Shown: positions 42,519-60,718 of the stretch, in pieces | Layout: every line of letters begins with the position of its first letter | How positions within the stretch are numbered: position 1 is the first letter of the stretch | NCBI GenBank assembly: GCA_030765585.1 | Contig: JAVCCJ010000034.1 | Span: 1 to 60,723, forward strand | Reading direction: 5' to 3' | Origin: Candidatus Zapsychrus exili | GTDB lineage: Bacteria > Omnitrophota > Gorgyraeia > Zapsychrales > Zapsychraceae | DNA: 60,723 nt | The notes under the pieces: generated by a model | What the model was told of the DNA's origin: nothing | Seen by the model: the letters and a program-made list of their open reading frames with translations, nothing else | The model's database searches: none | Program-made: the position numbers and the translations under genes

Positions 42519-42522
42519 TTTT

Positions 42523-43335: not shown

Positions 43336-43371
43336 ATCAATAAAAATACTTGTGGAAAGGAGGGTTAACAA

Positions 43372-43704
43372 ATGGCTAAGAAAGTTGCTAAAGTAGGTAT
43401 CAAAAAGGAAGCTGGATGCCTTTATTTTGTAGACAAGAAAGGCGATATCTCTTGCGCTAAAATGGCTCGTGGTAACAAGAAGGGTGGTTCACCTAAGAAA
43501 GTTGCTAAAGTCGGTATTACAAAAGAGTCAGGTTTCCTTTATTTTATAGATAAAGACGGAGACATCTCTTGCGCAAAAATGGTTCGTGGGGGTAAAAAGA
43601 AAAAAGCTGCAAAGAAAGTTGCAAAGAAGAAAGCTCCAGCTAAGAAGAAAGTTGTGAAGAAAATTGTAAAGAAAGTTGTAAAAAAAGCTAAAAAAAAGAA
43701 ATAA
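43372..43704 (+). CDS. Small basic protein with a duplicated 32-aa domain and Lys/Ala/Val-rich tail
   Basis: Strong RBS GGAAAGGAGG; repeats at residues 3-34 and 42-73 (26/32 identical); 22 Lys in last 36 aa. Confidence 0.8.
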   Translation: MAKKVAKVGIKKEAGCLYFVDKKGDISCAKMARGNKKGGSPKKVAKVGITKESGFLYFIDKDGDISCAKMVRGGKKKKAAKKVAKKKAPAKKKVVKKIVKKVVKKAKKKK

Positions 43705-43723
43705 TAATATAGCTTTTACATAC

Positions 43724-43769
43724 TTTAAACAGCCCTAATAAGCTAAACAGTTTGCTAGGGCTGTTTAAA
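43724..43769 (+). terminator. Stem-loop after the basic-protein gene
   Basis: TTTAAACAGCCCTA 43724-43737 / TAGGGCTGTTTAAA 43756-43769, perfect 14 bp. Confidence 0.6.
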
Positions 43770-43816
43770 ATTTAATTAAAAATCTCAATCCATCATCAAT
43801 TCTTACCAGTTCAATT

Positions 43817-46606
43817 ATGCAATCGCAACATATAACTATCTCTGGCGCAAAAGAACATAATCTAAAAAATATTAGCCTAAAGATTCCTCGCAATAAATTT
43901 ACTGTCATTACCGGTTTAAGTGGCTCTGGAAAATCGTCCTTAGCGTTTGACACAATTTACGCAGAAGGACAAAGAAGGTATGTAGAGAGTTTGTCTGCCT
44001 ACGCTCGTCAATTTCTTGAGCAACTACAGAAACCTAACGTTGAACACATCGAAGGCTTATCTCCTACAATATCAATAGAACAAAAAACAACTAGTCGCAA
44101 TCCGCGCTCTACTGTCGCAACGCAAACAGAAATTTACGATTATCTTCGTCTTTTATATGCAAGAGTTGGCACGCCCTACTGCTATAAATGCGGCAAGAAA
44201 ATAGAAAAGCAAACATCGTCAGAAATTGTTAATCAAATTTTAAAACACAAAGAAGAAACAAAAATAATAATTTTAGCTCCAATAATAAGAGGTAAAAAGG
44301 GCGAGCATAAAAATATAGGAAACAAGATAGCTAAAGCAGGCTTTGCTAGACTACGTATTAATGGAAAAATATATGAAACACAAGACGAAATAAAATTAGA
44401 TAGGTACAAATCTCACGACATTGAAGTTGTTATCGACCGTCTTACTATAAAGCCGACAATCAAAAAAAGACTTACTGAGTCAATTGAAACCGCACTTAAT
44501 GTGGGATGCGGTATTGTCTTTGTAGATTCTGGATTAAGAATTCCACTTGCTGTATACAGCGAGAATTACGCCTGTGTTGACTGTGGAATAAATATAGAAG
44601 AAATAGAACCTCGCATATTTTCATTTAACTCACCTTACGGTGCCTGCAGCGAATGCAACGGGCTAGGAACAAAGCTTGAAATAGACCCTGAGCTACTTAC
44701 TCCAGACAACACAAAACCTTGGATAAATGCAATAGCACCAGCAAAACGAGGACGAAGACACTACCTAATGTACTACAGAGCCCTCATGCGAGATCTGGCA
44801 GAATTATATGCTGTTGACCCGCACACGCCCTACAAAGAACTGAAAAAAGATTTCAAGGAAATAATGCTTTACGGATCAAAAGATAATATCTGGAACAAAG
44901 AATATGAAGGCGTTGTGAACTACCTAGAAAGAATGTTCAAGGACACTGACAGCGACTGGCTAAAAGACGAACTTAATCGTTATATGTCTATCTTGCCGTG
45001 CCCAACATGTCACGGCTTAAGGTTAAAAAAAGAGTCTTTAGCTGTTAAAATAAAAACAGCCAACATATCTGACATTACATCACTTTCAATTAAAGAAGCT
45101 AAAAAATTCTTTTCAGAACTTAAACTATCTAAAAATAAAACAATCATTGCGGAAGAAATACTAAAAGAGATTATTCGCAGACTAGATTTCTGCATAAATG
45201 TAGGACTTGACTATCTTACCTTAAGTAGAAAAAGCTCTACTTTATCAGGAGGGGAAGCAGAAAGAATAAGATTGGCAACTCAAGTTGGGTCCGGTCTTGT
45301 TGGAGTTATTTATATTCTTGATGAACCAAGCATAGGACTTCACCCGAAAGATAATGAAAGACTTCTATCAACTCTTCATTCTCTGAGAGATATTGGCAAC
45401 ACCCTTATTGTCGTAGAGCATGATGAAGAAACCATAAGAAAAAGCGACTACATAATTGATCTTGGACCAGGAGCAGGAGAGTATGGGGGAGAGATTATGT
45501 ACGCAGGAGATATAAAAGGCCTTCTGAAGTCCAAAAAATCTCTTTCTGGAAAATACTTAAGCGGAAGACTAAAGATATCAACACCTAAAAAAAGAAGGTC
45601 TTACAAAAAATCTGACGTGATAAAAATCGTCAAGGCCGAAGAGCATAATCTAAAAAAAATAAACGTAACTTTTCCGCTAGGAACATTTATTTGCGTTACA
45701 GGCGTATCTGGCTCCGGTAAATCAACTCTTGTCGATGAAATACTTTACAAAGCATTATCTCAAAAAATAAATTATTCAAAAGAAAAGCCAGGTAAACACA
45801 AAAATATCCTAGGAACAGAAAAGATAGATAAAATAATAGAGGTAGACCAATCTCCCATAGGAAGAACGCCTAGGTCAAATCCTGCAACATACACAGGCAT
45901 ATTTAGCCATGTAAGGGCGTTATTTAGCCAGCTACCTGAATCAAAAATGCGAGGATATAAACCAGGCCGTTTTAGCTTTAATGTAAAAGGTGGCAGATGT
46001 GAGGCATGTAAGGGAGACGGAATAAAAAAGATTGAGATGCATTTCTTGCCTGATGTATACATTGAATGCGAGGTGTGCGCAGGCAGACGCTTTACAGAGC
46101 AAACACTGGAGGTAGAATTCAAAGAAAAAAATATATCCAGCGTCTTAGATGCTTCAGTAACGGAAGCTCTTGAATTATTTAAAAACATACCTCGTATTAA
46201 AAAGATATTGCAAACCTTAAGCGATGTCGGTTTAGGTTATATAAAATTAGGTCAACCAGCAACAACTCTATCTGGAGGAGAAGCACAAAGAGTAAAGCTC
46301 GCGAGCGAACTTTGCAAGCCATCAACAGGAAATACTCTTTATATATTAGATGAGCCTACAACAGGCCTACACTTTGCTGATGTTGAAAAACTTTTAAACG
46401 TCCTTCAAAGACTGGTTGATCGCGGCAACACAGTTATTGTAATAGAGCACAATCTAGAAATAATTAAAAACTCAGACTATATAATTGACCTTGGACCTGA
46501 TGGAGGAGATAAGGGCGGAGAGATTATTTTTTCTGGTTCACCAAATGAAATAATAAAGCATAAGACTTCATATACGGGTAAATATCTAAAAAAGGTTATG
46601 TCCTAA
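43817..46606 (+). CDS. uvrA: Excinuclease ABC subunit A
   Basis: Two ABC modules (GLSGSGKSS, GVSGSGKST, LSGGEA), zinc-finger CxxC pairs. Confidence 0.98.
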   Translation: MQSQHITISGAKEHNLKNISLKIPRNKFTVITGLSGSGKSSLAFDTIYAEGQRRYVESLSAYARQFLEQLQKPNVEHIEGLSPTISIEQKTTSRNPRSTVATQTEIYDYLRLLYARVGTPYCYKCGKKIEKQTSSEIVNQILKHKEETKIIILAPIIRGKKGEHKNIGNKIAKAGFARLRINGKIYETQDEIKLDRYKSHDIEVVIDRLTIKPTIKKRLTESIETALNVGCGIVFVDSGLRIPLAVYSENYACVDCGINIEEIEPRIFSFNSPYGACSECNGLGTKLEIDPELLTPDNTKPWINAIAPAKRGRRHYLMYYRALMRDLAELYAVDPHTPYKELKKDFKEIMLYGSKDNIWNKEYEGVVNYLERMFKDTDSDWLKDELNRYMSILPCPTCHGLRLKKESLAVKIKTANISDITSLSIKEAKKFFSELKLSKNKTIIAEEILKEIIRRLDFCINVGLDYLTLSRKSSTLSGGEAERIRLATQVGSGLVGVIYILDEPSIGLHPKDNERLLSTLHSLRDIGNTLIVVEHDEETIRKSDYIIDLGPGAGEYGGEIMYAGDIKGLLKSKKSLSGKYLSGRLKISTPKKRRSYKKSDVIKIVKAEEHNLKKINVTFPLGTFICVTGVSGSGKSTLVDEILYKALSQKINYSKEKPGKHKNILGTEKIDKIIEVDQSPIGRTPRSNPATYTGIFSHVRALFSQLPESKMRGYKPGRFSFNVKGGRCEACKGDGIKKIEMHFLPDVYIECEVCAGRRFTEQTLEVEFKEKNISSVLDASVTEALELFKNIPRIKKILQTLSDVGLGYIKLGQPATTLSGGEAQRVKLASELCKPSTGNTLYILDEPTTGLHFADVEKLLNVLQRLVDRGNTVIVIEHNLEIIKNSDYIIDLGPDGGDKGGEIIFSGSPNEIIKHKTSYTGKYLKKVMS

Positions 46607-47139
46607 TGCAAATTAAAATATCAAAAGAATGTCAAGATTTCTCAGAAAGACTAGAGATACTCCCTAAGACAATAGCCTCAACATTCGTAAATAAAACTCA
46701 AGGTCTATTGATAAAATCCACTCCCGCACAAATCTATGCTATCAAATGGTTTGGCGGAAACAGAATTATACTGACTAATGGAATAATAACTAAACATCAA
46801 AAACAAGAATCCGGCTCAAAAATTCTTGAGATAACTGCTAAATTTGCTATCGAACTAAAAGAAACCCTTCCCTATGGAATAATAAGTAAGAATATGAAAA
46901 TGCCAAAAATTTTAAATGCTGTCGCAAAAAGCTTTGGCGTACCAGTTACTTGCCATAAAGAAGAACAGCCATCAAAAATATATAATGGAAAATGGGACGG
47001 AAAAACTATAAAATTTAAGTTAAATAAGAACGATCACTATCAAGTGTCTGGATCGTTTAATCCAAAAACAAAAACTTGCAAAAATGTCTGGGTATTTTCA
47101 TTTAACGAGTACAAAAAATGGTTTCATTCATTAAGTTGA
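46606..47139 (+). CDS. Hypothetical protein
   Basis: 177-aa ORF with TAATG coupling to uvrA; no motif recognised. Confidence 0.55.
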   Translation: MQIKISKECQDFSERLEILPKTIASTFVNKTQGLLIKSTPAQIYAIKWFGGNRIILTNGIITKHQKQESGSKILEITAKFAIELKETLPYGIISKNMKMPKILNAVAKSFGVPVTCHKEEQPSKIYNGKWDGKTIKFKLNKNDHYQVSGSFNPKTKTCKNVWVFSFNEYKKWFHSLS

Positions 47140-47169
47140 AAAATCAAAGAAAGCTGTTAAAATATTCGC

Positions 47170-49671
47170 ATGCACAATTTAAGAATCATTAAAAAATATA
47201 CACAATTAATATTTATATTATTTGCTATACAAACAATATTTTTTCTAGGCGCGTCAACTACCTTTGCGCAAAATAATAAAAACGAACTATTTTCTATTGC
47301 CCAAAAAGCATTTGATGATGGCTTTTATGACGTTGCTATCAGATACACAGAACAACTATTAGAACGATATCCTCAGACAGAAAAAATAATTCAAGCTAAA
47401 TTACTTTTAGGTCAATGTTACTTTTTCAAAAGCCAATATTTAAAAGCCTACGAAATTTTTAATGAATTACTTCAATATTCAGAATTTAAAGATGTTACAC
47501 TCTTTTGGCTAGGGGAAACATACTTAAAAGGTTCTGATTACACTCAAGCAGAACAACAATATAATCAATTAATAAAAGTTTATCCAGATTCAATATACGT
47601 CCCGCAGGCTTATTATTCTTTAGGTTGGTCTTATTTTGAACAGAACAATTTTAAAAAAGCCAAAGAAATATTAAACAAACTACTTCAAACATTCCCAATG
47701 CATCAATTATCTGAAGATGCTAGCTTTAAACTAGGAGAAATAGCGTACAATCTCAAAGATTATAAATCAGCGATCAATCTCTTCGAAAAATACATAGCAA
47801 CTTACCCTCAATCAACTCGTCATGCTGAAAGCTATTTTTATATAGGAGAATCTTTCTATTCTCTTGGAGACTATCTTACATCAATCACATATTATGCAAA
47901 ATCGGCAGAAATTTCTTTGGACGATAAATTAATAATAATGTCAAAAGTAAGCTTAGGATGGGGCTATTTAAAGCTAGGGAGGCATCAGCTTGCTGAAAAA
48001 AGCTTTAATGACGCGCTTGATGTTGCACAACAAAAAGGAATTCTTTCTGATGATGTGTTCTTGGGTCAAGCAACTCTTTATGCGGGAACAGGGGATAATT
48101 CCAAAGCTCTTGAAGCATATAAGAATATTATAAAGAGCTTTCCTAGCAGTCAAAGAATAAAAGAAGCTTACTTAGGTAGAGCAAACACATATTATCTTCT
48201 TAAGAAATATGCTCAAGCAATAGAATCATACGATGAACTTATAAACAAATTCTCAGAGGACGAATCTAGTCAAGAAATAGTAGAGAAGGCCTACTTCGGA
48301 TTAGCTTGGTCACATCTTAAATCAGGCGATCTTAAATCATCTATAAATAGCTTTGAAACAATTAAAAACAAAACAAAAAGTCAAAGCGCTAAAATAAGTG
48401 CATTAACGCAAATAGGCGATGCCTATCAAGACGCTAATATGCTTGACAAAGCAATAGAAGCATACGATCAAGTGCTCAAAGACTATCCAAACAATCCCTA
48501 CACAGATTATGTTCAATATCGACAAGGAATAGCTCTTTTAAAAATGGATAAGATAGAATCTGCAACACTATCTTTTCAAGGACTAGAAGCTAACTTTCCC
48601 CAAAGCAATTATTTAAATGATATAAAATATTATCTTGCTGTCATTTATTTCAAAAAAGAAGACTGGACCTCTGCGAAAGAACAGGTTGAAGATTTCATAG
48701 ATGGCTTGCCAGAGTCTCATGAATTTCTAGCTGAAAGTTATTACATATTAGCTCTTTCTCAATTCAATCTACAGAAATACGACGAAGCTATAAAAACATA
48801 TAACAAAATCATTAAAAACTATCCCTATCAATCTACAATTATCAAAAGCTCTGAAATAGCAATAGCAAAATGCCTTTATAAAAAAGGTTCCGTAAACGAA
48901 GCCTTAAAAAGGTTTAACTTATTAATAAATAAGTTTCCAAACTCAAGTGTATCGGAAGAAGCGATCATATGGCTCGGAGATCATTATTTAGAAATATCTA
49001 ATTTTGCAACAGCTATAAAACACTACTCTGTTTTTATGGACACCTTTCCTGAGAGCAAAAAATTAAACCTAGTAAAATATCAGCTTGGTCAAGCTTATCA
49101 AGCGCTAGAGAAATATGACGCTGCTGTAAACATATTAAAAGAGATCACTGATAAAAACAGAGAATTATACGCAAAGGCGAGACTAGCAATTGCTCATATA
49201 TTTTCAAGAGATTTAAATGATGATAAAGCTGTCGAGACATATAAAAGCATCATAGAAACATCTCCTGAGCTTAAAAGAGACGCTTATGTCAAAATAGCTG
49301 CTGTATATAAGAGAAATCAAGAGTACAGCAAGGCCCTAGATAGCTACGCCAATGCCTTAAAATCTGATAAACTACTAAGTTCATCGCAAAATTCAGAAAT
49401 ACAATTTTCTATTGGAGATACTTACGAACTTTTAAACAATACAGACAAAGCGGTGGAAGAATATTTAAAAATCCCATATCTTTACCAAAACCAAATAAGC
49501 TGGATAATAAAATCTTATTTAAGGGTAGGAAGAATATTTGAAGACAAAGAAAAATGGGAAGAAGCTAAAATAATCTACAAAAAGATAGTAGGCCATAAAA
49601 CAGATGAATCAAAATTCGCATACGAACGTATTGAGTGGATAGAAGAAAATTCTTTAGAAATTAAACAATAA
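47170..49671 (+). CDS. Exported multi-TPR protein (CpoB/BamD-like repeats)
   Basis: Signal peptide then recurrent TPR helices (A.Y.LG..Y, YP.S..A..A) over about 800 aa. Confidence 0.88.
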   Translation: MHNLRIIKKYTQLIFILFAIQTIFFLGASTTFAQNNKNELFSIAQKAFDDGFYDVAIRYTEQLLERYPQTEKIIQAKLLLGQCYFFKSQYLKAYEIFNELLQYSEFKDVTLFWLGETYLKGSDYTQAEQQYNQLIKVYPDSIYVPQAYYSLGWSYFEQNNFKKAKEILNKLLQTFPMHQLSEDASFKLGEIAYNLKDYKSAINLFEKYIATYPQSTRHAESYFYIGESFYSLGDYLTSITYYAKSAEISLDDKLIIMSKVSLGWGYLKLGRHQLAEKSFNDALDVAQQKGILSDDVFLGQATLYAGTGDNSKALEAYKNIIKSFPSSQRIKEAYLGRANTYYLLKKYAQAIESYDELINKFSEDESSQEIVEKAYFGLAWSHLKSGDLKSSINSFETIKNKTKSQSAKISALTQIGDAYQDANMLDKAIEAYDQVLKDYPNNPYTDYVQYRQGIALLKMDKIESATLSFQGLEANFPQSNYLNDIKYYLAVIYFKKEDWTSAKEQVEDFIDGLPESHEFLAESYYILALSQFNLQKYDEAIKTYNKIIKNYPYQSTIIKSSEIAIAKCLYKKGSVNEALKRFNLLINKFPNSSVSEEAIIWLGDHYLEISNFATAIKHYSVFMDTFPESKKLNLVKYQLGQAYQALEKYDAAVNILKEITDKNRELYAKARLAIAHIFSRDLNDDKAVETYKSIIETSPELKRDAYVKIAAVYKRNQEYSKALDSYANALKSDKLLSSSQNSEIQFSIGDTYELLNNTDKAVEEYLKIPYLYQNQISWIIKSYLRVGRIFEDKEKWEEAKIIYKKIVGHKTDESKFAYERIEWIEENSLEIKQ

Positions 49672-49723
49672 AATATAACTCCCTAAGTCATTATAGTTTG
49701 GGGATAATTAAGGAGGATTCAAA

Positions 49724-50380
49724 ATGGGCGGTGGCATATGGGAAATGAATGCATGGAAGTTAATTTTAACTGGTGGACCAATAATGGCGCCTATACTATT
49801 ATGTTCCTTTTTTGCTTTAGGAATAGTTATTGAGAAAACGATTTATCTCTTCAGCATAAAAACAAATATTGGAGAACTTAAAAAAAAGATTTTTGACTCC
49901 ATAAAAGACAACAAGATAAAAGAAGCTATGTCTCTCTGCGATTCAAATAGATCTCCTATCGCCAAAATATTAAAAGCTGGAATAATCAAATTTGGATGTT
50001 CAAGAGAAGAAATAAAAGAAAGTATGGAAGACGTAAGTCTTTTTGAAATACCAAAGCTTGAAAGTCGACTAAGTGCGCTCGCGACAATAGCTCATATAAG
50101 TCCGCTTTTAGGTCTGCTTGGAACTGTTACAGGCATGACAGCAAGTTTTCATACAATACAGGTTCAAGCTGCGGCCTTAAACCCTGTCACTCCTGGAGAC
50201 CTTGCAGGAGGGATTGGCGAAGCGCTCCTTACTACTGTAGCTGGTTTAATGGTAGCTATACCAACATTTGTTGCTTACAACTATTGCGTCAATAGGGTCA
50301 ATCACGTGATTCTAGATATGGAACGGGCTGCCACAGAACTAACAAATTTCATGTGTCAAATAACAGAAGCTAAAAGTTAA
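49724..50380 (+). CDS. MotA/TolQ/ExbB proton channel family protein
   Basis: ISPLLGLLGTVTGM, GIGEALLTTVAGL.VAIP. Confidence 0.92.
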   Translation: MGGGIWEMNAWKLILTGGPIMAPILLCSFFALGIVIEKTIYLFSIKTNIGELKKKIFDSIKDNKIKEAMSLCDSNRSPIAKILKAGIIKFGCSREEIKESMEDVSLFEIPKLESRLSALATIAHISPLLGLLGTVTGMTASFHTIQVQAAALNPVTPGDLAGGIGEALLTTVAGLMVAIPTFVAYNYCVNRVNHVILDMERAATELTNFMCQITEAKS

Positions 50381-50391
50381 GGGTAGATAAA

Positions 50392-50799
50392 ATGAAATTC
50401 AAACGACATACAAAATTAGAACACGGGTCAGAACAGATAGACTTAGCTCCTTTAGTAGACGTTATTTTTCAGCTTCTTATATTTTTTATGCTCTCATCCT
50501 CGTTTACTTTTCAATCTGGCATAAACGTAAAACTTCCTAAAGCTATAACTAGCGATGTAATAAAGGAAGAGAACCTGGTAGTAACAATAACGAGTGAGAA
50601 TATTATTTATCTAAATGGAACAATAACTACGCTAAAAGAATTAAACGTTCACTTAAGCAAAACAGCTGCCGATAAAAAACGTCCTCTATTAATAAAAGCA
50701 GATAGAAGAGCTTCTGTTGGAAGGATAGTAGACGTCTGGGACCTCTGTAGAAATTTAGGAATCGAAAAAATTAACATCGCGACAAATCAAAATAAGTAA
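50392..50799 (+). CDS. ExbD/TolR family protein
   Basis: IDLAPLVDVIFQLLIFFML with conserved Asp; LIKAD; coupled to the next gene. Confidence 0.92.
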   Translation: MKFKRHTKLEHGSEQIDLAPLVDVIFQLLIFFMLSSSFTFQSGINVKLPKAITSDVIKEENLVVTITSENIIYLNGTITTLKELNVHLSKTAADKKRPLLIKADRRASVGRIVDVWDLCRNLGIEKINIATNQNK

Positions 50800-51257
50800 T
50801 GATACGTCTTCCTAAAACAATAAAATATTTGCTTTTAAAAGCATTACTTTTATCAGTACTTCTGCACATAATAATATTAAAGCTGTTTATATTTACTTTT
50901 CCAACCAAAGTATTGTCACATAAGCCACGTCTAGTTTTTTTAGGACCTATATTAAAAGAAGAAGACATGCTTCAAAAAGTGTCTAGAAAAGATTTTTCTT
51001 CAGAAAACAAAATTTCAAAAGGATTTGTTGGAAAAACAATAAATGCAAATAAAGAAAAATCTCCTCCAACAGAGCTTACTAAACCACTGATTTCTAGGAA
51101 TAATATCAATACTAAATCAAAAAAGACAATAAAATCTATTTTCTTAAAACAAAAAAAGAACACATTAGACAATAAAGCCGTATATGATGACATTGGCATA
51201 AAATTTCAAGACTATCCGTACAAATCGCTTAGGTTTCCTAGTCCAATAAATAAATAA
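50799..51257 (+). CDS. Hypothetical protein with TonB/TolA-like N-terminal anchor and no recognisable TonB C-domain
   Basis: TM helix with S-x3-H (SVLLH), Lys-rich remainder, TAATG coupling to exbD. Confidence 0.5.
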   Translation: MIRLPKTIKYLLLKALLLSVLLHIIILKLFIFTFPTKVLSHKPRLVFLGPILKEEDMLQKVSRKDFSSENKISKGFVGKTINANKEKSPPTELTKPLISRNNINTKSKKTIKSIFLKQKKNTLDNKAVYDDIGIKFQDYPYKSLRFPSPINK

Positions 51258-51299
51258 CCACAGCATGGCAAAGAAAATAATGCTGCTTTAAATTTAATT

Positions 51300-51545
51300 A
51301 TGATAAAAACAGACATCGTATTTTTTATCGCTACAATGCTATCTTCATCAATAGTTCTTGTTTTTGCCTTTTGGCTGTTCTATAATTACAATAAAGATGA
51401 GAATATTTTAAATAAAACTAAATACTTACAACAATGCCCTTACTGCACTCATATATTTTTTGTTTATGAGAAAGAGGACATTCAAACTTGTCCACAATGT
51501 AAAAGCTTCTTAAAAACAAGAAGCGAACAAAACCAATCAGAATAA
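51300..51545 (+). CDS. Small membrane protein with zinc-ribbon-like CxxC pairs
   Basis: N-terminal TM, CPYC...CPQC. Confidence 0.65.
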   Translation: MIKTDIVFFIATMLSSSIVLVFAFWLFYNYNKDENILNKTKYLQQCPYCTHIFFVYEKEDIQTCPQCKSFLKTRSEQNQSE

Positions 51546-51554
51546 AGGTGAGAT

Positions 51555-51866
51555 ATGCTTAAAAATTTAAAAAATAACGAAAACGGAGTTGTTTTCATAA
51601 TGGTTATAGCTATCATAATGGTTATGATGGTTCTTGTAATATCAGTACTTAGCATGAACACCAGTCAAGTCATAAGCACAGAAGATGAGGTTAGACGCAT
51701 TCAAGCAGAAACTCTTGCTATGGGAGCGCTAGATTATTCTTTTGAATTAGCAGAGAATTCAACGCTTGGAACAGGCCCACTATACAACGAGACCATTGAT
51801 GGCACAGTTTTTTCAGTATCAACAGATTTTTCAAGCAGTGACCTAGATATAGATGTAGATTATTAG
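51555..51866 (+). CDS. PilX/GspK-like minor pilin N-terminal protein
   Basis: NENG/VVFIMVIAIIMVMMVL class III-like signal lacking E5; QA..LA..ALDY helix. Confidence 0.6.
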   Translation: MLKNLKNNENGVVFIMVIAIIMVMMVLVISVLSMNTSQVISTEDEVRRIQAETLAMGALDYSFELAENSTLGTGPLYNETIDGTVFSVSTDFSSSDLDIDVDY

Positions 51867-52047
51867 CTATACGCAGGCAACAATACTAACACCAATACCC
51901 TCATTATTTAGAATTATTCCAAACTTCGACAAAATCACTATTTTTTATCATCTATCAAATACCGATTATCCTCCTAAATAATACAGTTTAAATAAATATA
52001 CGACAAATTACACATAAAGCCTTAATTTAAAATAGTTTACAAACATA

Positions 52048-52076
52048 TTGACAAAGTAAGTTTATTATAGTTTAAT
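52048..52076 (+). promoter_or_regulatory. Putative sigma70 promoter of the pil cluster
   Basis: TTGACA-N17-TTTAAT in an AT-rich intergenic region. Confidence 0.45.
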
Positions 52077-52109
52077 TAAGTTTGTAGGCATATATTATGC
52101 ATTATAGGG

Positions 52110-52349
52110 ATGCATTATAAAATATATGTTTTAGCTTGTACGAAAACAAATGGCTATCATATGATGAAAAACTTATTAGACGTAGACGATCTGGCTAAAT
52201 ATCTAAAGCTTCAAAAGCAAACCATTTATAACTGGCTAAACCAGAGGAAGATATCTGGAATAAAAATAGGCGGTGTATGGCGCTTTGATAAGCGAGAAAT
52301 AGATAAGTGGCTAAAGTCTCAGTCAAGAAAAATCAGCAAAAGAAAGTAG
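52110..52349 (+). CDS. Excisionase-family (HTH_17/MerR-like) DNA-binding protein
   Basis: LLDVDDLAKYL.L.KQTIYNW...KI.G.KIGGVWRF....ID.W; alternative start ATG 52161. Confidence 0.85.
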   Translation: MHYKIYVLACTKTNGYHMMKNLLDVDDLAKYLKLQKQTIYNWLNQRKISGIKIGGVWRFDKREIDKWLKSQSRKISKRK

Positions 52350-52434
52350 ATTTATTAATGGCTTGATTTGCTTCATGAGCATTTGAAATAAAGTGACCTT
52401 GACGTCAGCTATTAATTAAATTGATAGGAAAAAT

Positions 52435-54006
52435 ATGACTGCAAACAAACAATTAGGAATTTTCTGGGGAGATGACAAACTATCTTTCTCTGAAATATAT
52501 GGTACATCCTTTGATGAGGAAGCAAATAAGTCCTTTAGCATATCTTATAAAAGAATCAGTATCGGTGGACTAATTGAAGTTGAAGACCAAGAGACAAAGG
52601 CAGAAGAAACTAAACTAGTTGAATCCATAAAAAATACTTTAGCACAAAAAGGGATAGATGGATCCTCTGTTAAGCTGTCGCTACCCACAAGAGACATAAT
52701 ACTCAGATCTTTTGTTGTCCCTTGGGTTCCTCAAAATGAAATGAAAAGAGTAGTTGAATTTGAAGCAAACAAATACTTACCTTTTCCTCTAAGCGAACTA
52801 TCCTATTCTTTTCAATCTTTGACTATAACTCAGAAAGGAAACAAACTCATAAGGATAATATTCGCTGCTATAAAAAAAGATGCGTTAAATAAATATCAAG
52901 AGCTGCTAGAAAGAGCTGGGTTAGGGGTTGATGTTGTAGAGCCTGACCCAATAAGTCTAATAAGAATGTTGACACACCAAGACTTAATACCAAAAAATGA
53001 AGCATTTGCTCTTGTGGTAAAAGAGAGCTCTAGGGGTAAAATTATTATAATCGACCAAGGCATACCTCAGTTTATTAGAGATTTTCAATTAAGAATAAAA
53101 TCATCTGACAACGAAGAAATAAGCCCTGATTTCTTAACAACAAGGTTTGTAAACGAAATTCATGTGTCGCTAGATTACTTTAATAGGATGGGGAGTCAAC
53201 AAAATATAAAGAGCTTAAAATTAATATGTTTTTCTAATTCAGAAAACACAATAAAAGCTCTTGAAGAAAATCTAGATATACCTATTACAAAAATAGAAAA
53301 TGATACCATCTCAACAATAGGACAAGACAATATCGACTTTCTTAATTCATATGGCGCAAGTCTTTTTGGACTAATAGACACCCCTTCAGACCTTAATTTA
53401 TCAGAAAAAAAACTAGCAAACAAATCTGCAACAATAAAAGAGCTACTAAAGAATATTGACTACAAAACAGTACTGCCTATCATAGCAGGATCTATAGCTT
53501 TAATAATAGTTTCATCCATGATGTCAAATTTCTTTATCAAGAAAATAAATGAGAAATTTATTACCCTTAAAGAAAAATTAGGCATATATGAAAATGCTTC
53601 TGTCGAAATCATAGAAAGCAAAAACAACATGTTAAGAGAGCAGCTTGATGTATTTAAAAATATACGAGTAAACAGTGAGATATCTTTATTTTTAAGAGAA
53701 GTGCCAAAAATGTTGCCAGAAGGAGCATGGATTAAAGATTTTAATATAGCATACGTCGAAAAAACTTCTAGAAATAGCGAAACCGGCGAAGACGTTTTAA
53801 ACAAAAGTAAGCCTAAAATAGGTCTAAACGGCTACGTTCATAAAAAAAATACAAACGAGCAATTTAAGATTGCTAATAAATTCCTTAGCAATCTTAAGCG
53901 CAATAAAGAATTTTCTAGTCAGTTTGAAGAAATTGAGCTTCAATCGGCTAAAGCAGAGAAATTAGAACAATACGAACTAACTTCTTTTGAAATTAACTGT
54001 AAATAA
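52435..54006 (+). CDS. PilM-PilN fusion (GspL-like architecture)
   Basis: PilM-like actin-fold region (SLPTRDIILRSF, YLPFPLSEL, VVEPDPISL), TM near residue 345-370, then PilN-like coiled coil and ferredoxin-like region. Confidence 0.7.
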   Translation: MTANKQLGIFWGDDKLSFSEIYGTSFDEEANKSFSISYKRISIGGLIEVEDQETKAEETKLVESIKNTLAQKGIDGSSVKLSLPTRDIILRSFVVPWVPQNEMKRVVEFEANKYLPFPLSELSYSFQSLTITQKGNKLIRIIFAAIKKDALNKYQELLERAGLGVDVVEPDPISLIRMLTHQDLIPKNEAFALVVKESSRGKIIIIDQGIPQFIRDFQLRIKSSDNEEISPDFLTTRFVNEIHVSLDYFNRMGSQQNIKSLKLICFSNSENTIKALEENLDIPITKIENDTISTIGQDNIDFLNSYGASLFGLIDTPSDLNLSEKKLANKSATIKELLKNIDYKTVLPIIAGSIALIIVSSMMSNFFIKKINEKFITLKEKLGIYENASVEIIESKNNMLREQLDVFKNIRVNSEISLFLREVPKMLPEGAWIKDFNIAYVEKTSRNSETGEDVLNKSKPKIGLNGYVHKKNTNEQFKIANKFLSNLKRNKEFSSQFEEIELQSAKAEKLEQYELTSFEINCK

Positions 54007-54018
54007 ATTTTAAAACTT

Positions 54019-54654
54019 ATGAATTTAGAAAAAATAAAAAACTTTATCAACAAACTCAACAATATCAAAATAGAAGATTTTAAGAACATTGATGTTGAAC
54101 AGTTAAAAAATATCAATATATACCAGATTAAAGATTTTATCCTGTCTAGACCAAATGAAGCAATAAAAGTGTTCTTTGTAATGCTATCTATAATAATTCT
54201 TATCAGTATCCGTTCTGGACACGTTAAAGAGACGAGAACATTAAGGGAAAACACAATACAGATGGCGGACATTTTAACATACGTTGAAGAATATAAGGTT
54301 CTTCAAAAAGAATATAATGACTTTATGAAAAGTTTTCCAAAATCAATCCCAAGCTATCAATTATTAAACAAGCTATCTGAGCTTGCTCAATCAAGAGGAA
54401 TAAAAATATTAGATTTTTCTCCAGCAGCAGAAGAAGACAAAAAACTATGGCAACTTGCAACTGTTGATATTTCAATTGAATCAAAAGATTATAAAAGCAT
54501 CATTCTTTTTATGCAAGATATTGAAGATCCTAAACATGCTATGAGAGTAGATACTTGGACCGGGGAAATGCCAAGCGAGCAAACAGAAGGCGCTGCTAAA
54601 AATCTACTTAAAGCCAAAATTACAATAGGCGCAATTAAGTTAAAAAATGAATAA
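54019..54654 (+). CDS. pilO: PilO/GspM-like protein
   Basis: Single TM, coiled coil, LLNKLSELAQSRGI.I..F.P, Y.SI..F..DIE. Confidence 0.7.
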   Translation: MNLEKIKNFINKLNNIKIEDFKNIDVEQLKNINIYQIKDFILSRPNEAIKVFFVMLSIIILISIRSGHVKETRTLRENTIQMADILTYVEEYKVLQKEYNDFMKSFPKSIPSYQLLNKLSELAQSRGIKILDFSPAAEEDKKLWQLATVDISIESKDYKSIILFMQDIEDPKHAMRVDTWTGEMPSEQTEGAAKNLLKAKITIGAIKLKNE

Positions 54655-55189
54655 AAAATATTTAATACTAGTCCTATTTTTATTGTCATTAACTTCGTTA
54701 TCTTATGGAAAAGATACTGTATCTAGTGACTCTAAACTGCAAAATACTTATGATTTAAGCGACCTAAGAAATCCTTTTCTTCCTCAATTACCTGTTAAAG
54801 AAAAAGAAACTATTAAAAAAGAAGTTAAAAAAGAAACTCAAATAGACAGAATAAAAAAAGAACGCACTAAAGTTAAAAAAATAAAACCTATTAAGAAAAG
54901 GGTCAAAAAGAAAACTGTGGTTCCTAAAATAGATAAGGCAGTACAAGAGGTTGTGTCTGAGGAGAAAAAAACATTAAAAGAAGTATTAGAGCCGACTGCG
55001 CCTGAGATTAAAATAACAGGTCTAATATGGAACTCGGAAAAACCTCAAGCGATAATAGAAGGCAAAGTTGTCAACATAGGAGATGCCTTGCCATATAAAA
55101 GTAAAAAAGATGTAATAAAAATAATCGCTATTCGTAAATCCGAAGTTGACATTAACTTTAGAGACAAAATATTTACAATAAAACAATAA
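54647..55189 (+). CDS. PilP/GspC-like periplasmic protein without lipobox
   Basis: Signal peptide with no Cys, DLRNPF motif, ITGLIWNSEKPQAIIEGKVVNIGD beta domain. Confidence 0.6.
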   Translation: MNKKYLILVLFLLSLTSLSYGKDTVSSDSKLQNTYDLSDLRNPFLPQLPVKEKETIKKEVKKETQIDRIKKERTKVKKIKPIKKRVKKKTVVPKIDKAVQEVVSEEKKTLKEVLEPTAPEIKITGLIWNSEKPQAIIEGKVVNIGDALPYKSKKDVIKIIAIRKSEVDINFRDKIFTIKQ

Positions 55190-55201
55190 AAGGAGTGCTA
55201 T

Positions 55202-56704
55202 ATGAACAAGAACGATTTTTATAAATTATTAAAAATGACATTTATTTTGTTAATGTTTATGTTAATAACAACGTCCTCAGATGCGCTAAATTTTTCTGAT
55301 ACAAGCGTATTTATCTACCCTGAATTTGAAGAAACGGTATCTATGGACTTTAAAGATGCTTCTCTAAATGACGTCTTAAAAATATTCTCTCAACAGTCTA
55401 ACCTAAACTTTATAGCAGCAGCAAATGTTTCAGACAAGAAAGTCAATCTTTACTTGAACAATGTAAGTATAGAGGAAGCTCTTGAGAGAATTCTATCTGC
55501 TAATAACTTAACATATGAAATTACTCCAGGAAGTAATATTTTTACCGTTAAAGCTCTCAATAGACCAGAAAAACAGCTAGTAACTCACGTATATAGACTA
55601 AAGCATGCGTCTGTATCTTCTGCTAAAATAACAAAAGAAATTGGCAGTTCTAGCGATTCAGATAGTTCAAGCTCAGAAACTTCAGACTCAGATAGTTCAG
55701 AAGAAGGCTTGATATCTGCTATTGAATCTCTATTAACAGAGGATGGATCTATCGTAGAAGACGCTAGAACAAATAGTATTATAGTTACAGATATTCCTAG
55801 CATATTTCCATCAATAGAACAAACAATTACGAAATTGGATATTAGGATTCCGCAAATTCTAATAGAAGTTGAGATGCTTGATATATCAAAATCTACTACA
55901 GAGCTATTAGGGTCTAAATGGGGCAATACTCCTCTAAGTATAACGGGCGGCGAAAGAAGTGACTACCTTCCTTTTAATCTAAACAATGCTATGGACACCC
56001 CGGCAAGTAGCGGCATTGAAGACAGGTACACCACAGGTACTGTTTCATTTGCAGGACTAACTTATATTTTACAATTTTTAAGAACACAAACTGATACTAA
56101 AAATCTTGCAAGACCTAGAATACTTACTCTAAACAATCAAACAGCTGAAATAAAAATTGTAACAGATGAAGCAATAGGCAGTGTAAACAGTCAAACAACT
56201 TCTGAGGGGTCATCAACTTCTGCGCTAGAAGCTGAAAGAGTTCAAACAGGTGTGTTTCTAAAAGTAACACCTCAAGCGAACATAGAGACAGGCGAAATAA
56301 CTCTTGCTATTGAGCCTAGAGTTATTCAAGCTAGAACGGGTCAAACTTTTGGAGCTAACACCTATAAAGACCCTGAAGAAAGAGGAACAAAATCAATACT
56401 ACGAGTAAAGGATGGTGATACCGTAATACTCGGAGGACTATTAAGAAACGATATTTCTAACACAAAAACATGGGTGCCTTTTATTGGAAGAATACCTATA
56501 ATAGGGTCCCTATTTAAGCATAAAGATAAAGCGGAAACACAAAGAGAGTTGATTGTCTTTATAACACCACACATAATACAAGAAAATGTAGACTTTAAAG
56601 CTCAAAAAAATAATAGAAAAATAACCAGGGAACAAGACATGCCTTTTAGAAGATTTAATATGGTCGACAAAGAGCTTTCTTCAATAGAAAGGAGTAATTT
56701 CTGA
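55202..56704 (+). CDS. Secretin (PilQ/GspD family, short form)
   Basis: VSMDFKDASL.DVL STN domain, IVEDARTNSIIV, QILIEV, ARPRILTLNNQTAEI, VPFIGRIPIIGSLFK. Confidence 0.92.
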   Translation: MNKNDFYKLLKMTFILLMFMLITTSSDALNFSDTSVFIYPEFEETVSMDFKDASLNDVLKIFSQQSNLNFIAAANVSDKKVNLYLNNVSIEEALERILSANNLTYEITPGSNIFTVKALNRPEKQLVTHVYRLKHASVSSAKITKEIGSSSDSDSSSSETSDSDSSEEGLISAIESLLTEDGSIVEDARTNSIIVTDIPSIFPSIEQTITKLDIRIPQILIEVEMLDISKSTTELLGSKWGNTPLSITGGERSDYLPFNLNNAMDTPASSGIEDRYTTGTVSFAGLTYILQFLRTQTDTKNLARPRILTLNNQTAEIKIVTDEAIGSVNSQTTSEGSSTSALEAERVQTGVFLKVTPQANIETGEITLAIEPRVIQARTGQTFGANTYKDPEERGTKSILRVKDGDTVILGGLLRNDISNTKTWVPFIGRIPIIGSLFKHKDKAETQRELIVFITPHIIQENVDFKAQKNNRKITREQDMPFRRFNMVDKELSSIERSNF

Positions 56705-56707
56705 TAT

Positions 56708-58456
56708 ATGGCTAGACCAAGGATGGGCGAAATACTGCTCAAAAAAGGACTTATTACTTTAGAGCAACTAGAAAAAAGTCTTGAGACTCAAAAGAAACAA
56801 GGGGGTCGTATAGGTGAGATCTTTATAAGTCTCGGCTTTATATCAGAAGAGAATATGATAGCTGAACTAGGTCTTCAGCTAGGCATACCATATTATTCTT
56901 CAGAGCAACCAGAACTACTTACTCCAAACCCTGATCAAGAGCTAGAAAAGCTCATACCTAGTGATTTTGCACGCAAAAACAACGTGCTACCGCTATCTAA
57001 GAATATGAACTCATTAACATGCGCTATAAACGACCCTTCAGAGCTTATTTTAATAGATAATATAAAAAGAATTACTGACTGTGAAACAAATATAGTGCTA
57101 GCTACAAAAAAATCTATACAAAAAGCTATAGGCAAGTTCTATTTTGGAGAAAGTGGAAGTATAACTGACGACTCCAAACATTCTATGCTTAATCAAGCTG
57201 TTGAGAAGTCTTATGCTCAAAATGAAGATAACATCTCAATAGCAAGCTCTTCGACAAATACTGCATCCGCAGAACTTAGTTTAGACAGTCTTATAGCAAA
57301 AGCTGGGGAAGCTCCTGTTATCAAACTTGTTGACTTAATTATTCGCCAGGCAATAGATGAACAAGCGAGTGATATTCACATAGAACCTTTTGAAAACAAT
57401 ATTCATCTTCGATATAGAATAGATGGAACCTTATACGACATACCGCCTCCAGCTCCTCATTTACATTTACCAATAGTTTCTCGTATAAAAATTTTAGCTA
57501 AACTAGATATAGCAGAAAAACGTCTCCCACAAGATGGCAATATTACAGCAAAGCTTGAAGACAGAGCTGTTGACTTAAGAATCTCCACCATACCAACGGT
57601 TTGGGGAGAAAAAGTAGTTATGAGAATCTTAGACAAAGGCGCTGTAAACCTTCAGCTAGGAAGCCTTGGTTTCGACACTAAACAAGTAGAGACGATCAGA
57701 AAAGCCTTAAAATCTCCATATGGATTATTTTTTGTAACAGGACCAACTGGAAGCGGAAAATCTACCACGCTTTATTCTTCACTAAACGAAGTTATGGATT
57801 CAACTAAAAACATTATGACAGCAGAAAACCCAGTTGAATATAAATTAGAGGGTATAAATCAAATAAATGTGCGCTCTGCAATTGGACTTACATTCGCAAC
57901 AGCGCTTAAAGCATTCTTACGTCAAGATCCTGATATTATCATGGTTGGAGAGGTAAGAGACCTAGAAACTGCTTCTATATGTATACGAGCTGCATTAACA
58001 GGGCATTTCGTTTTAAGCACACTACATACTAATGATGCTGCCTCTGCTATAACTAGACTTATGGACATTGGAGTATCTAGCTTTTTACTTACACCTTCTT
58101 TAACGCTTATAATTGGACAACGACTTGCGAAGAAACTCTGCTCAGAATGCAAAGAGCCTTACGAACCTACGCCTGAACAACATGGTGGAATAAAATTCAA
58201 AAGTGATTTAATATATAAACCGAAAGGATGTGAGAAGTGCAATCACCATGGTTATAGGGGAAGAGTGGTTGTGTCAGAAGTCCTAGAAGTTAATGATAAA
58301 ATAAGAGCATTGATATCTAAGAATGCGGCTTCAAATGAGATTAAAGATGCAGCAAGATCTAACGGTATGTCTACTATATTTGAAACAGGAATCAAACTAG
58401 TCGAAAATGGCATAACTAGCTTTGAAGAAATTTGCAGAGTAAGTATCGAAGTATAA
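56708..58456 (+). CDS. pilB: PilB/GspE assembly ATPase with N-terminal MshEN motif
   Basis: ASDIHIEP, LPQDG, GPTGSGKST, LRQDPDIIMVGEVRD, TGH.VLSTLHTN, tetracysteine motif. Confidence 0.92.
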   Translation: MARPRMGEILLKKGLITLEQLEKSLETQKKQGGRIGEIFISLGFISEENMIAELGLQLGIPYYSSEQPELLTPNPDQELEKLIPSDFARKNNVLPLSKNMNSLTCAINDPSELILIDNIKRITDCETNIVLATKKSIQKAIGKFYFGESGSITDDSKHSMLNQAVEKSYAQNEDNISIASSSTNTASAELSLDSLIAKAGEAPVIKLVDLIIRQAIDEQASDIHIEPFENNIHLRYRIDGTLYDIPPPAPHLHLPIVSRIKILAKLDIAEKRLPQDGNITAKLEDRAVDLRISTIPTVWGEKVVMRILDKGAVNLQLGSLGFDTKQVETIRKALKSPYGLFFVTGPTGSGKSTTLYSSLNEVMDSTKNIMTAENPVEYKLEGINQINVRSAIGLTFATALKAFLRQDPDIIMVGEVRDLETASICIRAALTGHFVLSTLHTNDAASAITRLMDIGVSSFLLTPSLTLIIGQRLAKKLCSECKEPYEPTPEQHGGIKFKSDLIYKPKGCEKCNHHGYRGRVVVSEVLEVNDKIRALISKNAASNEIKDAARSNGMSTIFETGIKLVENGITSFEEICRVSIEV

Positions 58457-58491
58457 TATAATAAATAATAATTCAAAAGAGGAACATAATA

Positions 58492-59735
58492 ATGCCAAAA
58501 TTTTCTTATGTTGTAAAAGACAGAGAAGGTCACACTAAAAAAAATGTTGTCGAAGAAATTAGCCAGTCTATTCTTGTTTCAAAACTGCAAGCGCAAGAAT
58601 ATTTTATAATAAGCGTAAAAGAAATTAGCATGCCAATACCTCTTGCCAAAAAAAGACAACAAAAGAAAAAGAAAAAACAGTTCTCTCATAAAAAAGTTAA
58701 ACTAGAAGATTTACTTACTTTTTCACGCCAACTTGCAACAATGCTTGAATCTGGAGTAAATTTGGTACGAAGCTTAACTGTTATTCAGACACAAATACAA
58801 AGTGAACAGCTTTCAAAAATAATAAAACAAATACGAAACGATGTTGAGCAAGGTCTGTCTTTGAGTCCAGCACTTGCAAAACATCCGAAAGTTTTTAATC
58901 AATTTTGGGTAAGTTTAGTTGAAGTAGGAGAGGCCTCAGGAACTATGTCTACCGTTTTAAATAAACTCTCTTTTTACCTTGAACAACAAGCATCCTTTAG
59001 ATCAACAATTACATCTGGAATAATATATCCTTTAGTTTTATTGGCGTATCAGTTGGTGCCATTACATTTTTTGCTCTTTTTGTTGGCCCAAGATTTCAAT
59101 CCATCTTTCAGTCAATGGGGGCAGAACTACCTGCTATAACGACTATACTGCTCGCAACATTTGCATTTATAAAGAAAAACTTTCTATTGCTAGTTGGAGC
59201 AATTATCATAGCAGTGCAATTGTTTAAAAAGTATATAAAAACATACGTCGGAAGAATGAATTTCGAAAACTTTCTTTTTAATACTCCTACAATAGGTGAA
59301 ATATTCAAACTTATTGTGGTAGAAAGATTTACATCTCAAATGGCTATATTAATTGATGCTGGTGTTCCTATTTTATACGCACTTGATATATCAGAAAAGC
59401 TTGTTGACAATATAACTTGTGCTCAGATAATCAACGACATAAAGGAAGGTGTTAAAAAAGGTTCTCTTCTTGTAGATCAAATGCAAGAAAGCGAATTTTT
59501 TCCTCCCATGGCAATACAAATGATTATGGTAGGCGAAGAAACAGGAGAGCTTAGCAAAATGCTTAAGCACGTTGCAAACTATTACCAAGAAAATGTAGAA
59601 ACCTTTATGAAACGTTTTGCAACTATTATTGAACCTTTTATGCTTGTCTTTATGGGAGGTATAATAGGAACCATCGTTCTGGCAATGTTCTTGCCAATGT
59701 TTAACCTATCTCAGCTTGGTGGAGGTATGGGGTAA
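58492..59735 (+). pseudogene. pilC: PilC/GspF inner-membrane platform protein with a 1-nt frameshift near 59041
   Basis: FSRQLATMLESG...GEASG in the first frame; GEETGEL...IIEP in the second; adding one base at 59041-59043 restores IYPLVL-GVSVGAITFFALFVGPRF. Confidence 0.85.
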
Positions 59736-59900
59736 TAAGAACAAACTATTGAAGATTTCTAAATGTTTATTCTGTAACGATTTATGAATTCTTTCTTATT
59801 CCGAAAGATAGGAAAATTTATAAAATTTACCTTTAAAATAACCTATTTTTAAGGTAAACTAATAAAGTTAAAGAAAATTTACTATAGATTTTACCGTTAT

Positions 59901-59929: not shown

Positions 59930-59968
59930 TTTCGTAGAAGGTAAAAGAAGTTCTTTTGAAGTGTATTT

Positions 59969-60096
59969 GATTATTGTACAGGTAAACTGCCCGTAAGGGT
60001 AGGACACAAAACTAGAGGACCCAAGCTCAAAGATTTTTTTTTGAGATTATATATAGATGTGAACATTAAGTATAGGGTAGCCAGTTGCCGATAATC
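59969..60096 (+). promoter_or_regulatory. Cyclic di-GMP-I (GEMM-I) riboswitch
   Basis: P1 GATTATTG/CGATAATC; GGTAAA; P2 CTGCCC-GTAA-GGGTAG; GACACAAA; P3 AACTAG..ACCC/GGGT..CCAGTT; 3' GCCGA. Confidence 0.85.
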
Positions 60097-60295: not shown

Positions 60296-60718
60296 ATGAA
60301 ACTTAACAAACTTAACAAAAAAAGCGGTTTTACATTACTTGAAATTATTATCGTTATTATAATTGTTGGTGTCTTAGCAAGTTTAGCATTACCTAGATTC
60401 TTCCAAACAGTCAAATTTGCAAAAAGTACTGAAGCCTTAAATACTCTTGGTGCAATAAGAAGAGCTGTTGATCGTTGTGCAATGATGACTGGAGCTGCAT
60501 TAACTTATGGAAACTGTAAAAGCTACGCACAGATAGGAATGGAGAACCCGAGCACTGAATCAGAAACGTTCGCTTATACATTTGGTTCAACCAGCACTAC
60601 AACAAGTTTAATTGCAACAAGTGCTGATGGAGTTATTACTCTTAAAATAAATTATGCCAACCTAGCCAATATAGTCGTTACTAGGACTGGTACCAGTTCA
60701 TACGCACAAATAAAGTAG
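60296..60718 (+). CDS. pilA: Type IV pilin (probable major pilin)
   Basis: RBS AGGAG; KKSG/FTLLEIIIVIIIVGVLASLALP; Cys pair RCAMM...NC. Confidence 0.85.
   Translation: MKLNKLNKKSGFTLLEIIIVIIIVGVLASLALPRFFQTVKFAKSTEALNTLGAIRRAVDRCAMMTGAALTYGNCKSYAQIGMENPSTESETFAYTFGSTSTTTSLIATSADGVITLKINYANLANIVVTRTGTSSYAQIK

Follow-up and report, generated by a model that had tools for sequence, protein, structure and literature searches.

An ExbB-ExbD stator module with a minimal TonB/TolA-like anchor beside the type IVa pilus genes of Omnitrophota: a candidate pilus accessory

A set of six genes was analysed in a 60,723-nucleotide stretch of DNA from Candidatus Zapsychrus exili (Omnitrophota), contig JAVCCJ010000034.1 of assembly GCA_030765585.1. 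This whole stretch is called the window below. The six genes lie at 47170-51866, immediately before a cluster of type IV pilus genes, and the set is a variant of the TolQR/ExbBD kind of stator, defined by a short tether (T152), a giant tetratricopeptide repeat (TPR) partner (TPR833), a small zinc-ribbon protein (Zn81) and a pilin-like subunit (P103). The explanation that we tentatively prefer, and to which we give somewhat less than an even chance, is a stator of the TolQR/ExbBD type that is encoded by these six genes together with an adaptor and a scaffold of its own and that assists the type IVa pilus machine of Omnitrophota as an accessory. The main rival, a serious one, is a Tol-like envelope system that does without Pal. 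The genes of the module are the following.

47170..49671, + strand: TPR833, an exported protein of 833 residues made up entirely of TPRs (Pfam TPR_6, TPR_2 and YfiO; NCBIfam tol_pal_ybgF)
49724..50380, + strand: ExbB/TolQ-type stator subunit, 218 residues (PF01618 MotA_ExbB, 1.4e-30)
50392..50799, + strand: ExbD/TolR-type stator subunit, 135 residues (PF02472, 9.8e-28)
50799..51257, + strand: T152, a short TonB/TolA-like anchor of 152 residues with an S19-x3-H23 helix and a tail predicted to be disordered
51300..51545, + strand: Zn81, a single-pass membrane protein of 81 residues with a four-cysteine zinc ribbon (CPYC...CPQC)
51555..51866, + strand: P103, a miniature GspK/PilX/GspI-like minor pseudopilin of 103 residues, assigned by its pilin-type N-terminus and predicted fold

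A first-pass annotation, made from the letters of the sequence alone, had listed these six parts. All six open reading frames (ORFs) were found where it had placed them, on the + strand, in one direction and closely spaced, when the ORF list and translations of the window were examined. No second ExbB or ExbD was found in the 60.7-kb window. A Zorya or other anti-phage defence system was also considered and was ruled out, as the match to ZorA reached only 0.003 and the other parts were missing.

The gene order was followed in about 100 related loci, which comprised 22 species-representative genomes, 70 metagenome contigs found via ExbD and eight contigs found via individual proteins. The sample reaches deep, with ExbD 47-82% identical to that of the window and PanC only ~55% identical. 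In every locus of sufficient length the order was TPR, ExbB, ExbD, T152, Zn81, P103, a helix-turn-helix (HTH) gene in some of them, PilMN, PilO, PilP, PilQ, PilB, PilC and the pilins. The recurrence of this order in every one of the ~100 loci shows that it is no chance event, and the module, which the first-pass annotation had tied to the pil genes, was never found unlinked from them. In the relatives, neighbours among the genes for ExbD, T152 and Zn81 usually share four bases, and short gaps or overlaps lead on to P103. From P103 to pilM the distance is 39-87 bp in three genomes without the HTH gene. Exceptions to the order were few and included one contig without P103.

Two loci depart from this arrangement in other ways. 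In locus L006, a foreign gene of 736 residues (9026-11236, - strand) sits between exbD and T152; its product has repeats rich in Gly, Thr, Ala and Ser, and by eye its C-terminal segment looks like the intramolecular-chaperone domains of tail fibres. In locus L058 (10206-11998), a truncated P103 is directly followed by pilB, and pilMN, pilO, pilP and pilQ are missing; either these genes were lost in nature or the contig is misassembled.

The upstream end of the module can be placed at the junction of uvrA and the TPR gene. We read this junction as a boundary because it takes lineage-specific insertions, whereas interruptions between TPR and P103 are very rare. In the window itself, the junction holds an ORF of 177 residues (46606-47139) with no family match and no counterpart in the relatives. 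Loci L017 and L019 carry an extra 1.8 kb at the same place (5650-7463), and L031 carries a gene of 615 residues (3760-5607).

An exploratory test of rate covariation was conducted with 19 loci, with housekeeping divergence controlled for. The reference pairs ExbB-ExbD and PilB-PilC gave 0.78 and 0.66, respectively. ExbB covaried with PilO (0.52) and PilMN (0.47), TPR833 with PilMN (0.51), and P103 with PilMN, PilQ and PilB (0.47-0.49), and the values for ExbB with AspDH or UvrA were about 0. These values weakly suggest a link between the module and the pilus.

The stator pair could be assigned to its family but not to a known subtype. Against the NCBIfam models, ExbB scored 106.7 bits with tolQ (cut-off 221) compared to 65.8 with exbB (cut-off 206), both under the cut-off, and its best sequence matches in the PDB were TolQ (2e-12) and ExbB (8e-8). 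ExbD scored 58.2 with ExbD_2 (cut-off 123) and 63.3 with tolR (cut-off 127), and its PDB matches, ExbD at 8e-6 and TolR at 5e-3, put it nearer to ExbD than to TolR. Since all of these scores lie far under the equivalog cut-offs, the ExbB and ExbD of the window appear to be a separate branch of the TolQR/ExbBD family. Both proteins hold the residues of a working proton channel, as judged by alignment. ExbB has T134, E166, T170 and T171, the Thr and Glu residues of transmembrane (TM) helices 2 and 3, and ExbD has the membrane residue Asp23, in a helix (LVD23VIF) that aligns with D25 of ExbD. Proton conduction is predicted from these residues.

The fourth gene encodes the most distinctive part of the module. 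The start codon of T152 overlaps the stop codon of exbD, and no match to T152 was found in Pfam, NCBIfam or, by sequence search, the PDB. The protein consists of an N-in TM helix followed by a Lys/Pro-rich tail (12% Lys and 10% Pro). In the AlphaFold2 (AF2) model the helix at 6-33 is confident, and the remaining ~115 residues have a predicted local distance difference test (pLDDT) score below 60 and are predicted to be disordered. The LLSVLLH segment of the helix aligns with LLSVCIH in Escherichia coli TonB and IISAVLH in TolA. The alignment, the absence of Pfam and PDB matches and the disordered tail of the model together confirm what had been noticed at first, namely an S-x3-H helix without a TonB C-terminal domain.

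An exhaustive profile search found 342 clusters of T152 relatives, and the best 150 of them are mostly 130-175 residues long (range 112-231) and mostly match from end to end. A word-indexed search with the T152 profile returned 8 matches only. His23 is present in 99% and Ser19 in 86% of 155 representatives of the family; where position 19 is not Ser, it is mostly another small residue (Ala in the orthologues from the loci). Other near-invariant motifs are KPxFxFLGSIL just outside the membrane, a central K-P, K108 and K112, and a C-terminal PYxPLRL. No TonB C-terminal domain was detected by Pfam in 18 orthologues, even at E 0.5, or in any of the 155 family sequences. TolA domains II and III were likewise not found in T152, and the E. 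coli TolA query gave no match. By its sequence, T152 is a TonB/TolA-like transducer cut down to a coupling helix and a flexible tether with putative docking peptides. We infer its coupling to ExbB from the helix motif and the gene order.

A TonB-like helix could also mean that ExbB and ExbD are a general energiser for TonB-domain proteins and outer-membrane transporters encoded elsewhere, with T152 as a regulatory or decayed TonB paralogue. The solved structures closest to ExbD are ExbD structures, and the module shares with Ton systems the proton-path residues, the order exbB-exbD-anchor and the LLSVxxH helix. A 2026 preprint on 176 complete Omnitrophota genomes reports two proteins with a TonB C-terminal domain, found in some contigs, and contains no mention of ExbB or TolQ. 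Because this preprint mentions a few such proteins, a shared energiser role keeps some weight. We consider it quite unlikely, however, since the module differs from Ton systems in lacking the TonB C-domain throughout the T152 family and in having no TonB-dependent transporter nearby: no TonB-dependent receptor was seen in the 60.7-kb window or, in the gene tables and family assignments, in the flanks of the related loci. For the regions that it examined, this preprint also reports an absence of receptor/sus-type clusters. A general energiser would also leave no role for the conserved TPR protein, Zn81 and P103.

TPR833 is the largest protein of the module. TPR families cover its residues ~30-825, with matches to the YbgF/CpoB-type TPR unit of NCBIfam in 10 stretches. 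Its N-terminus resembles a signal peptide (R/K, a hydrophobic stretch and then TFA|QN), and 20 orthologues have the form of a cleavable signal peptide that ends in A-Q, without a lipobox. The median identity is 55% over ~830 residues (53 loci). The TPR domain of E. coli CpoB matches TPR833 repeatedly, down to 1e-8; these matches involve only CpoB residues ~153-263, with the N-terminal part unmatched, and this class of TPR is also common to BamD and other proteins. From its sequence, TPR833 reads as a periplasmic scaffold with YbgF/CpoB- and BamD-type TPR units. A lipoprotein pilotin of the PilF/PilW/Tgl kind was rejected as an identity for TPR833, which has no lipobox, scores far under the PilW and Tgl cut-offs and is several times longer than these models (234 and 252 positions).

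The combination of a TolQR-type motor, an exported TPR protein and a TonB-like membrane protein in a machine that is not for uptake is also seen in the Agl-Glt core complex (aglRQS plus gltD/E/G/C), which occurs in non-gliding bacteria too, where its function is unknown (PMC3169522). By analogy, this complex is the nearest known system in composition, as its parts list is the same in kind. The module could be a relative of this complex whose task is gliding or surface transport, and the pilus cluster would then lie next to it as a system apart. This is very unlikely in our view. The module has one ExbB and a single ExbD-type gene, compared to AglR plus the two TolR-like proteins AglQ and AglS. 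T152 is much smaller than GltG and lacks its TonB Pfam domain, and the other Glt parts are missing, with no GltC-like protein, outer-membrane beta-barrel partner or GltF-like protein nearby. The likeness of TPR833 to GltD and GltE is by description only, as an exported TPR protein, and the module adjoins pilus genes.

The last two genes of the module encode small membrane proteins. Zn81, the CxxC membrane protein of the first-pass annotation, has a single TM helix, and all four Cys of CPYC...CPQC are conserved in 23/23 aligned orthologues; its matches to zinc-ribbon families in Pfam are weak only. The ribbon is presumed to be cytoplasmic because four-Cys zinc sites require a reducing compartment. 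P103 begins with MLKNLKNNENG / VVFIMVIAIIMVMMVLVISVL, a basic leader of ten residues that is followed by Gly11, which hardly varies, and by a long hydrophobic helix. Such a start fits a class III signal peptide, with a short basic leader, Gly at -1 and a hydrophobic helix of ~20 residues. P103 has no Glu at +5 and no match to PF07963 (N_methyl), which also holds for minor pilins of the GspK/PilX class. Among 17 orthologues, the GspK N-terminus of NCBIfam was matched in 13/17, PilX_N in 9/17 and ComGG in 7/17. The AF2 model (pLDDT 87.5) has a helix of 59 residues (9-67) followed by a three-stranded sheet, a predicted helix and small-sheet fold that may be like that of GspK, PilX and GspI. P103 differs from these proteins in its size (103 residues versus 307 positions in the GspK model) and in being encoded with a stator, away from the other pilins. 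The PilX-like pilin that had been proposed at first is upheld insofar as P103 carries a GspK/PilX-type N-terminus by sub-threshold matches. A weak P103-like gene was also seen within the pilin cluster of locus L077.

Several observations weigh against a functional tie to the pilus or against proton drive as its basis. The genes upstream of the module, panC-aspDH-K110-uvrA, are as syntenic as the pil genes, and for this reason synteny alone proves no functional link. Over ~20 kb (window 41670-60718), the succession of genes from panC via uvrA and the module up to the pilins is preserved in genomes with only ~55% identity in PanC. The synteny is unusually frozen, housekeeping genes included, and the adjacency of module and pilus may be a matter of mere general collinearity. 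The genomes are compact, and in some of them uvrA and the TPR gene abut or overlap; since these two genes are unrelated, close spacing is no proof of a single operon. In the rate test the control was imperfect, as PanC covaried with the Pil proteins as well. The GspK, PilX_N and ComGG matches of P103 are all below the curated cut-offs, and its best Foldseek match, EpsI/GspI at E 0.7-2, is not significant.

The stator itself adds to these doubts. Asn, Ser or Thr stands in place of the essential Asp in 9/78 distinct ExbD orthologues (~12%; loci L020, L024, L082, L086, L089, L091, L093, L098 and L100), and the TM3 Glu of ExbB is Gln or Ala in 8/67 orthologues (loci L057, L068, L087, L089, L091, L093, L095, L098 and L100). 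Some lineages have both changes. Judging by the ExbD D25N and TolR D23 mutants, such stators are expected not to conduct protons. The lineages with variant stators retain the complete gene order and the His of T152. In these lineages the stator is either a static scaffold in part of the clade or uses another ion path. Because of these variants, we have less confidence in proton drive as the conserved core of the function. A proton motor for the type IV filament system, as first proposed, thus stands as to its parts and their linkage, while the drive is unproven, given the equal synteny upstream and the ~12% of ExbD proteins without the Asp.

Frozen gene order is also what the main rival calls upon. 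In this explanation, the outer membrane is maintained or constricted by a Pal-independent Tol-like system that consists of TolQ and TolR, a minimal tether of the TolA kind and a very large TPR protein akin to CpoB; it would stand beside the pil genes through frozen order, and Zn81 and P103 would belong to the pilus cluster. By sequence, Tol-Pal is the nearest known system, with a TolQ-like stator, an anchor of the TolA S-x3-H pattern and a TPR protein that matches YbgF/CpoB-type units. ExbB is best matched to TolQ both in NCBIfam and among solved structures. The median identities of ExbB and ExbD across the loci, 72-73%, are on par with that of UvrA and would fit a housekeeping machine. The equal synteny of the housekeeping genes upstream also speaks for the rival. 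The supplement of a survey of outer-membrane tethers (10.1101/2021.05.31.446380) has four Omnitrophica genomes without Pal, OmpA, Lpp, OmpM or LolA. In that supplement the sole "Omnitrophica" entry with Pal is OLB16, a lineage that is misclassified according to Seymour et al. (PMC10066038). The absence of Pal is provisional because the surveyed genomes are drafts. Since the four genomes list no known tether, another system must tether the outer membrane in them.

The module differs from Tol-Pal in several respects, and these lead us to see the rival as possible but less probable than a pilus accessory. E. coli TolA, TolB, Pal, YbgC and TonB were used as queries, and none had a match in the window or in the ~100 loci with 10-kb flanks. 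The first-pass annotation had seen no Tol-Pal genes or TonB receptors near the module, and this extends to the relatives, with neither kind of partner within 10 kb of any locus and no Pal in the four surveyed genomes. The anchor is without TolA domains II and III, and TPR833 is three times the length of the 263-residue E. coli CpoB. The TolQ and TolR equivalog cut-offs were both missed widely, and ExbD is closer to ExbD than to TolR. In addition, T152 is coupled by gene overlap to Zn81 and to the pilin-like P103.

The pilus-accessory explanation has a precedent in Pseudomonas aeruginosa. There, the ExbB/ExbD/TonB homologues PocA, PocB and TonB3 are required for the production and polar placement of type IV pili, and TonB3 has been suggested to contact the N0 domain of PilQ, which is like that of FpvA (PMC5285504). 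By analogy, PocAB-TonB3 is the nearest functional precedent, as a non-uptake ExbB/ExbD/TonB set tied to type IVa pili, and the Omnitrophota PilQ has an STN/N0 domain too. The two systems differ in their organisation. In the summary given by PMC5285504, the Poc genes are ascribed neither a place in a pilus cluster nor a TPR partner, a zinc-ribbon protein or a pilin, whereas the Omnitrophota parts lie in one block with the pilus genes and the anchor is a tether of 152 residues without a C-domain. The likeness to Poc is one of family-level homology, and the function proposed here is read from gene linkage and weak rate covariation.

Type IVa pili occur in nearly all Omnitrophota and are considered central to host attachment (Seymour et al. 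2023, PMC10066038). Class 2-02-FULL-51-18 is reported among the lineages that lack the pilus, although 4 of 9 of its genomes have it. ExbB, TolQ and TonB are not mentioned in the paper by Seymour et al. or in a 2023 preprint on Omnitrophota giant genes, and the supplements of Seymour et al. have no mention of tolB, tolQ, exbB, pilT or TonB. The first-pass annotation had regarded the module as a candidate for an undescribed system. The module is indeed absent from the Omnitrophota papers searched, but the claim has to be narrowed, as PocAB-TonB3 (PMC5285504) and the Glt core complex (PMC3169522) are precedents.

If the six genes serve the pilus, they could work in the following manner. Proton flow through an ExbB5-ExbD2 stator would move the T152 helix, whose tail would span the periplasm. 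The PYxPLRL peptide would then dock, by strand addition or in a TPR groove, and its partner could be TPR833 or a pilus part such as the N0/STN domain of PilQ, PilP or PilN/O. Like PocAB-TonB3, for which such a role has been proposed, the module would spend this work on installing the pilus machine, placing it, gating it or pulling on it. P103 would be the contact on the pilus side, and Zn81 the contact on the cytoplasmic side.

The genes downstream of the module are the following.

52110..52349, + strand: small DNA-binding protein of the HTH_17 family (excisionase/MerR-like), a candidate regulator between P103 and pilM (PF12728, 8.6e-16)
52435..54006, + strand: PilM-PilN fusion (PF11104 and PF05137)
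54019..54654, + strand: PilO (PF04350, 1.5e-8)
54647..55189, + strand: candidate PilP-like lipoprotein, assigned by position only, with no Pfam match in the window and weak T2SSB matches in relatives
55202..56704, + strand: PilQ secretin (STN/N0, Secretin_N and Secretin)
56708..58456, + strand: PilB assembly ATPase (orthologues with MshEN and T2SSE)
58492..59735, + strand: PilC platform protein, split into two overlapping ORFs (58492-59139 and 59115-59735)
59971..60092, + strand: c-di-GMP-I riboswitch (Rfam RF01051, 55 bits), with a terminator-like hairpin at 60138-60164
60296..60718, + strand: type IV pilin (G / FTLLE; PF07963), sequence MKLNKLNKKSGFTLLE

These genes match the parts list of a type IVa pilus, with PilM, PilN, PilO, a secretin, a PilB-type ATPase, PilC and a prepilin. 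The HTH_17 gene is present in about half of the relatives, yet no protein of the locus is better conserved than its product (median identity 87%). This protein also matches the MADS1 (mad1) HTH models of defence systems. In the relatives pilC is a single ORF of ~410 residues, and the window has a GGGGG run at ~59125; the split of pilC may stem from a frameshift, from slippage or from a fault in the assembly. The cluster pilin has a paralogue 33 kb upstream of the cluster, encoded by a second type IV pilin gene at 26698-27156 (phmmer 1.3e-36, with the N_methyl motif).

The riboswitch lies between pilC and the pilin gene and was found in the same place in 6/7 relatives tested (L005, L007, L017, L041, L087 and L098). 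The MshEN domain in MshE binds cyclic di-GMP (c-di-GMP). It may be that c-di-GMP controls both the supply of pilin and the assembly of the pilus, as far as riboswitch and domain assignments can indicate. In a scan for promoters and terminators, sites were no commoner than in shuffled sequence, and only the riboswitch terminator was informative. The same scan, with sites at that shuffled-sequence frequency, gave no terminator-like site from the TPR gene to pilC.

The other 47 kb of the window hold biosynthetic and housekeeping genes and one AcrB-type pump. Upstream of uvrA is K110 (43372-43704), a conserved Lys-rich protein of 110 residues with a poly-Lys tail, found in every relative. An internally duplicated segment, KVAKVGI..G.LYF.DK.GDISCAKM.RG, occurs in it twice, and the protein has no Pfam match. 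The G+C content of the window is ~33-37%, and the closest relatives of its ExbB all carry the label Candidatus Omnitrophota or Omnitrophica. Reads with the window sequence were found in two DNA runs, both of them salt-lake metagenomes, and in none of the RNA runs.

No PilT, the second secretion ATPase, was found in the 60.7-kb window, and PilD was also unseen there. PilB is the sole ATPase of its kind in the window, which bears out the remark in the first-pass annotation that pilT was lacking from it. That the module takes the place of PilT in retraction is pure speculation, and the absence of PilT covers this window only. A bolder form of the pilus-accessory explanation, which we consider rather doubtful, is a type IVa pilus with its own proton-driven stator. 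Here, the target on which ExbB-ExbD would pull, via the disordered tether and the giant TPR scaffold, would be the secretin/alignment complex or else a pseudopilin at the tip or base. Proton-motive force, instead of or beside PilT, would power gating, retraction or the holding of force in host attachment, and the stators with Asn or Gln would be natural locked versions.

T152 represents an unannotated protein family and indicates how small a TonB/TolA-like transducer can be, namely a helix and a flexible peptide. If the system is instead Tol-like and works without Pal, it would bear on envelope cohesion in a phylum without the four known outer-membrane tethers. If the link to the pilus is functional, this would be the first case of a TolQR/ExbBD-type motor built into a pilus gene cluster, and it would allow the action of PocAB-TonB3-like systems on pili to be considered in a clean genetic setting, in the Omnitrophota, widespread and ultra-small bacteria that are thought to be host-dependent.

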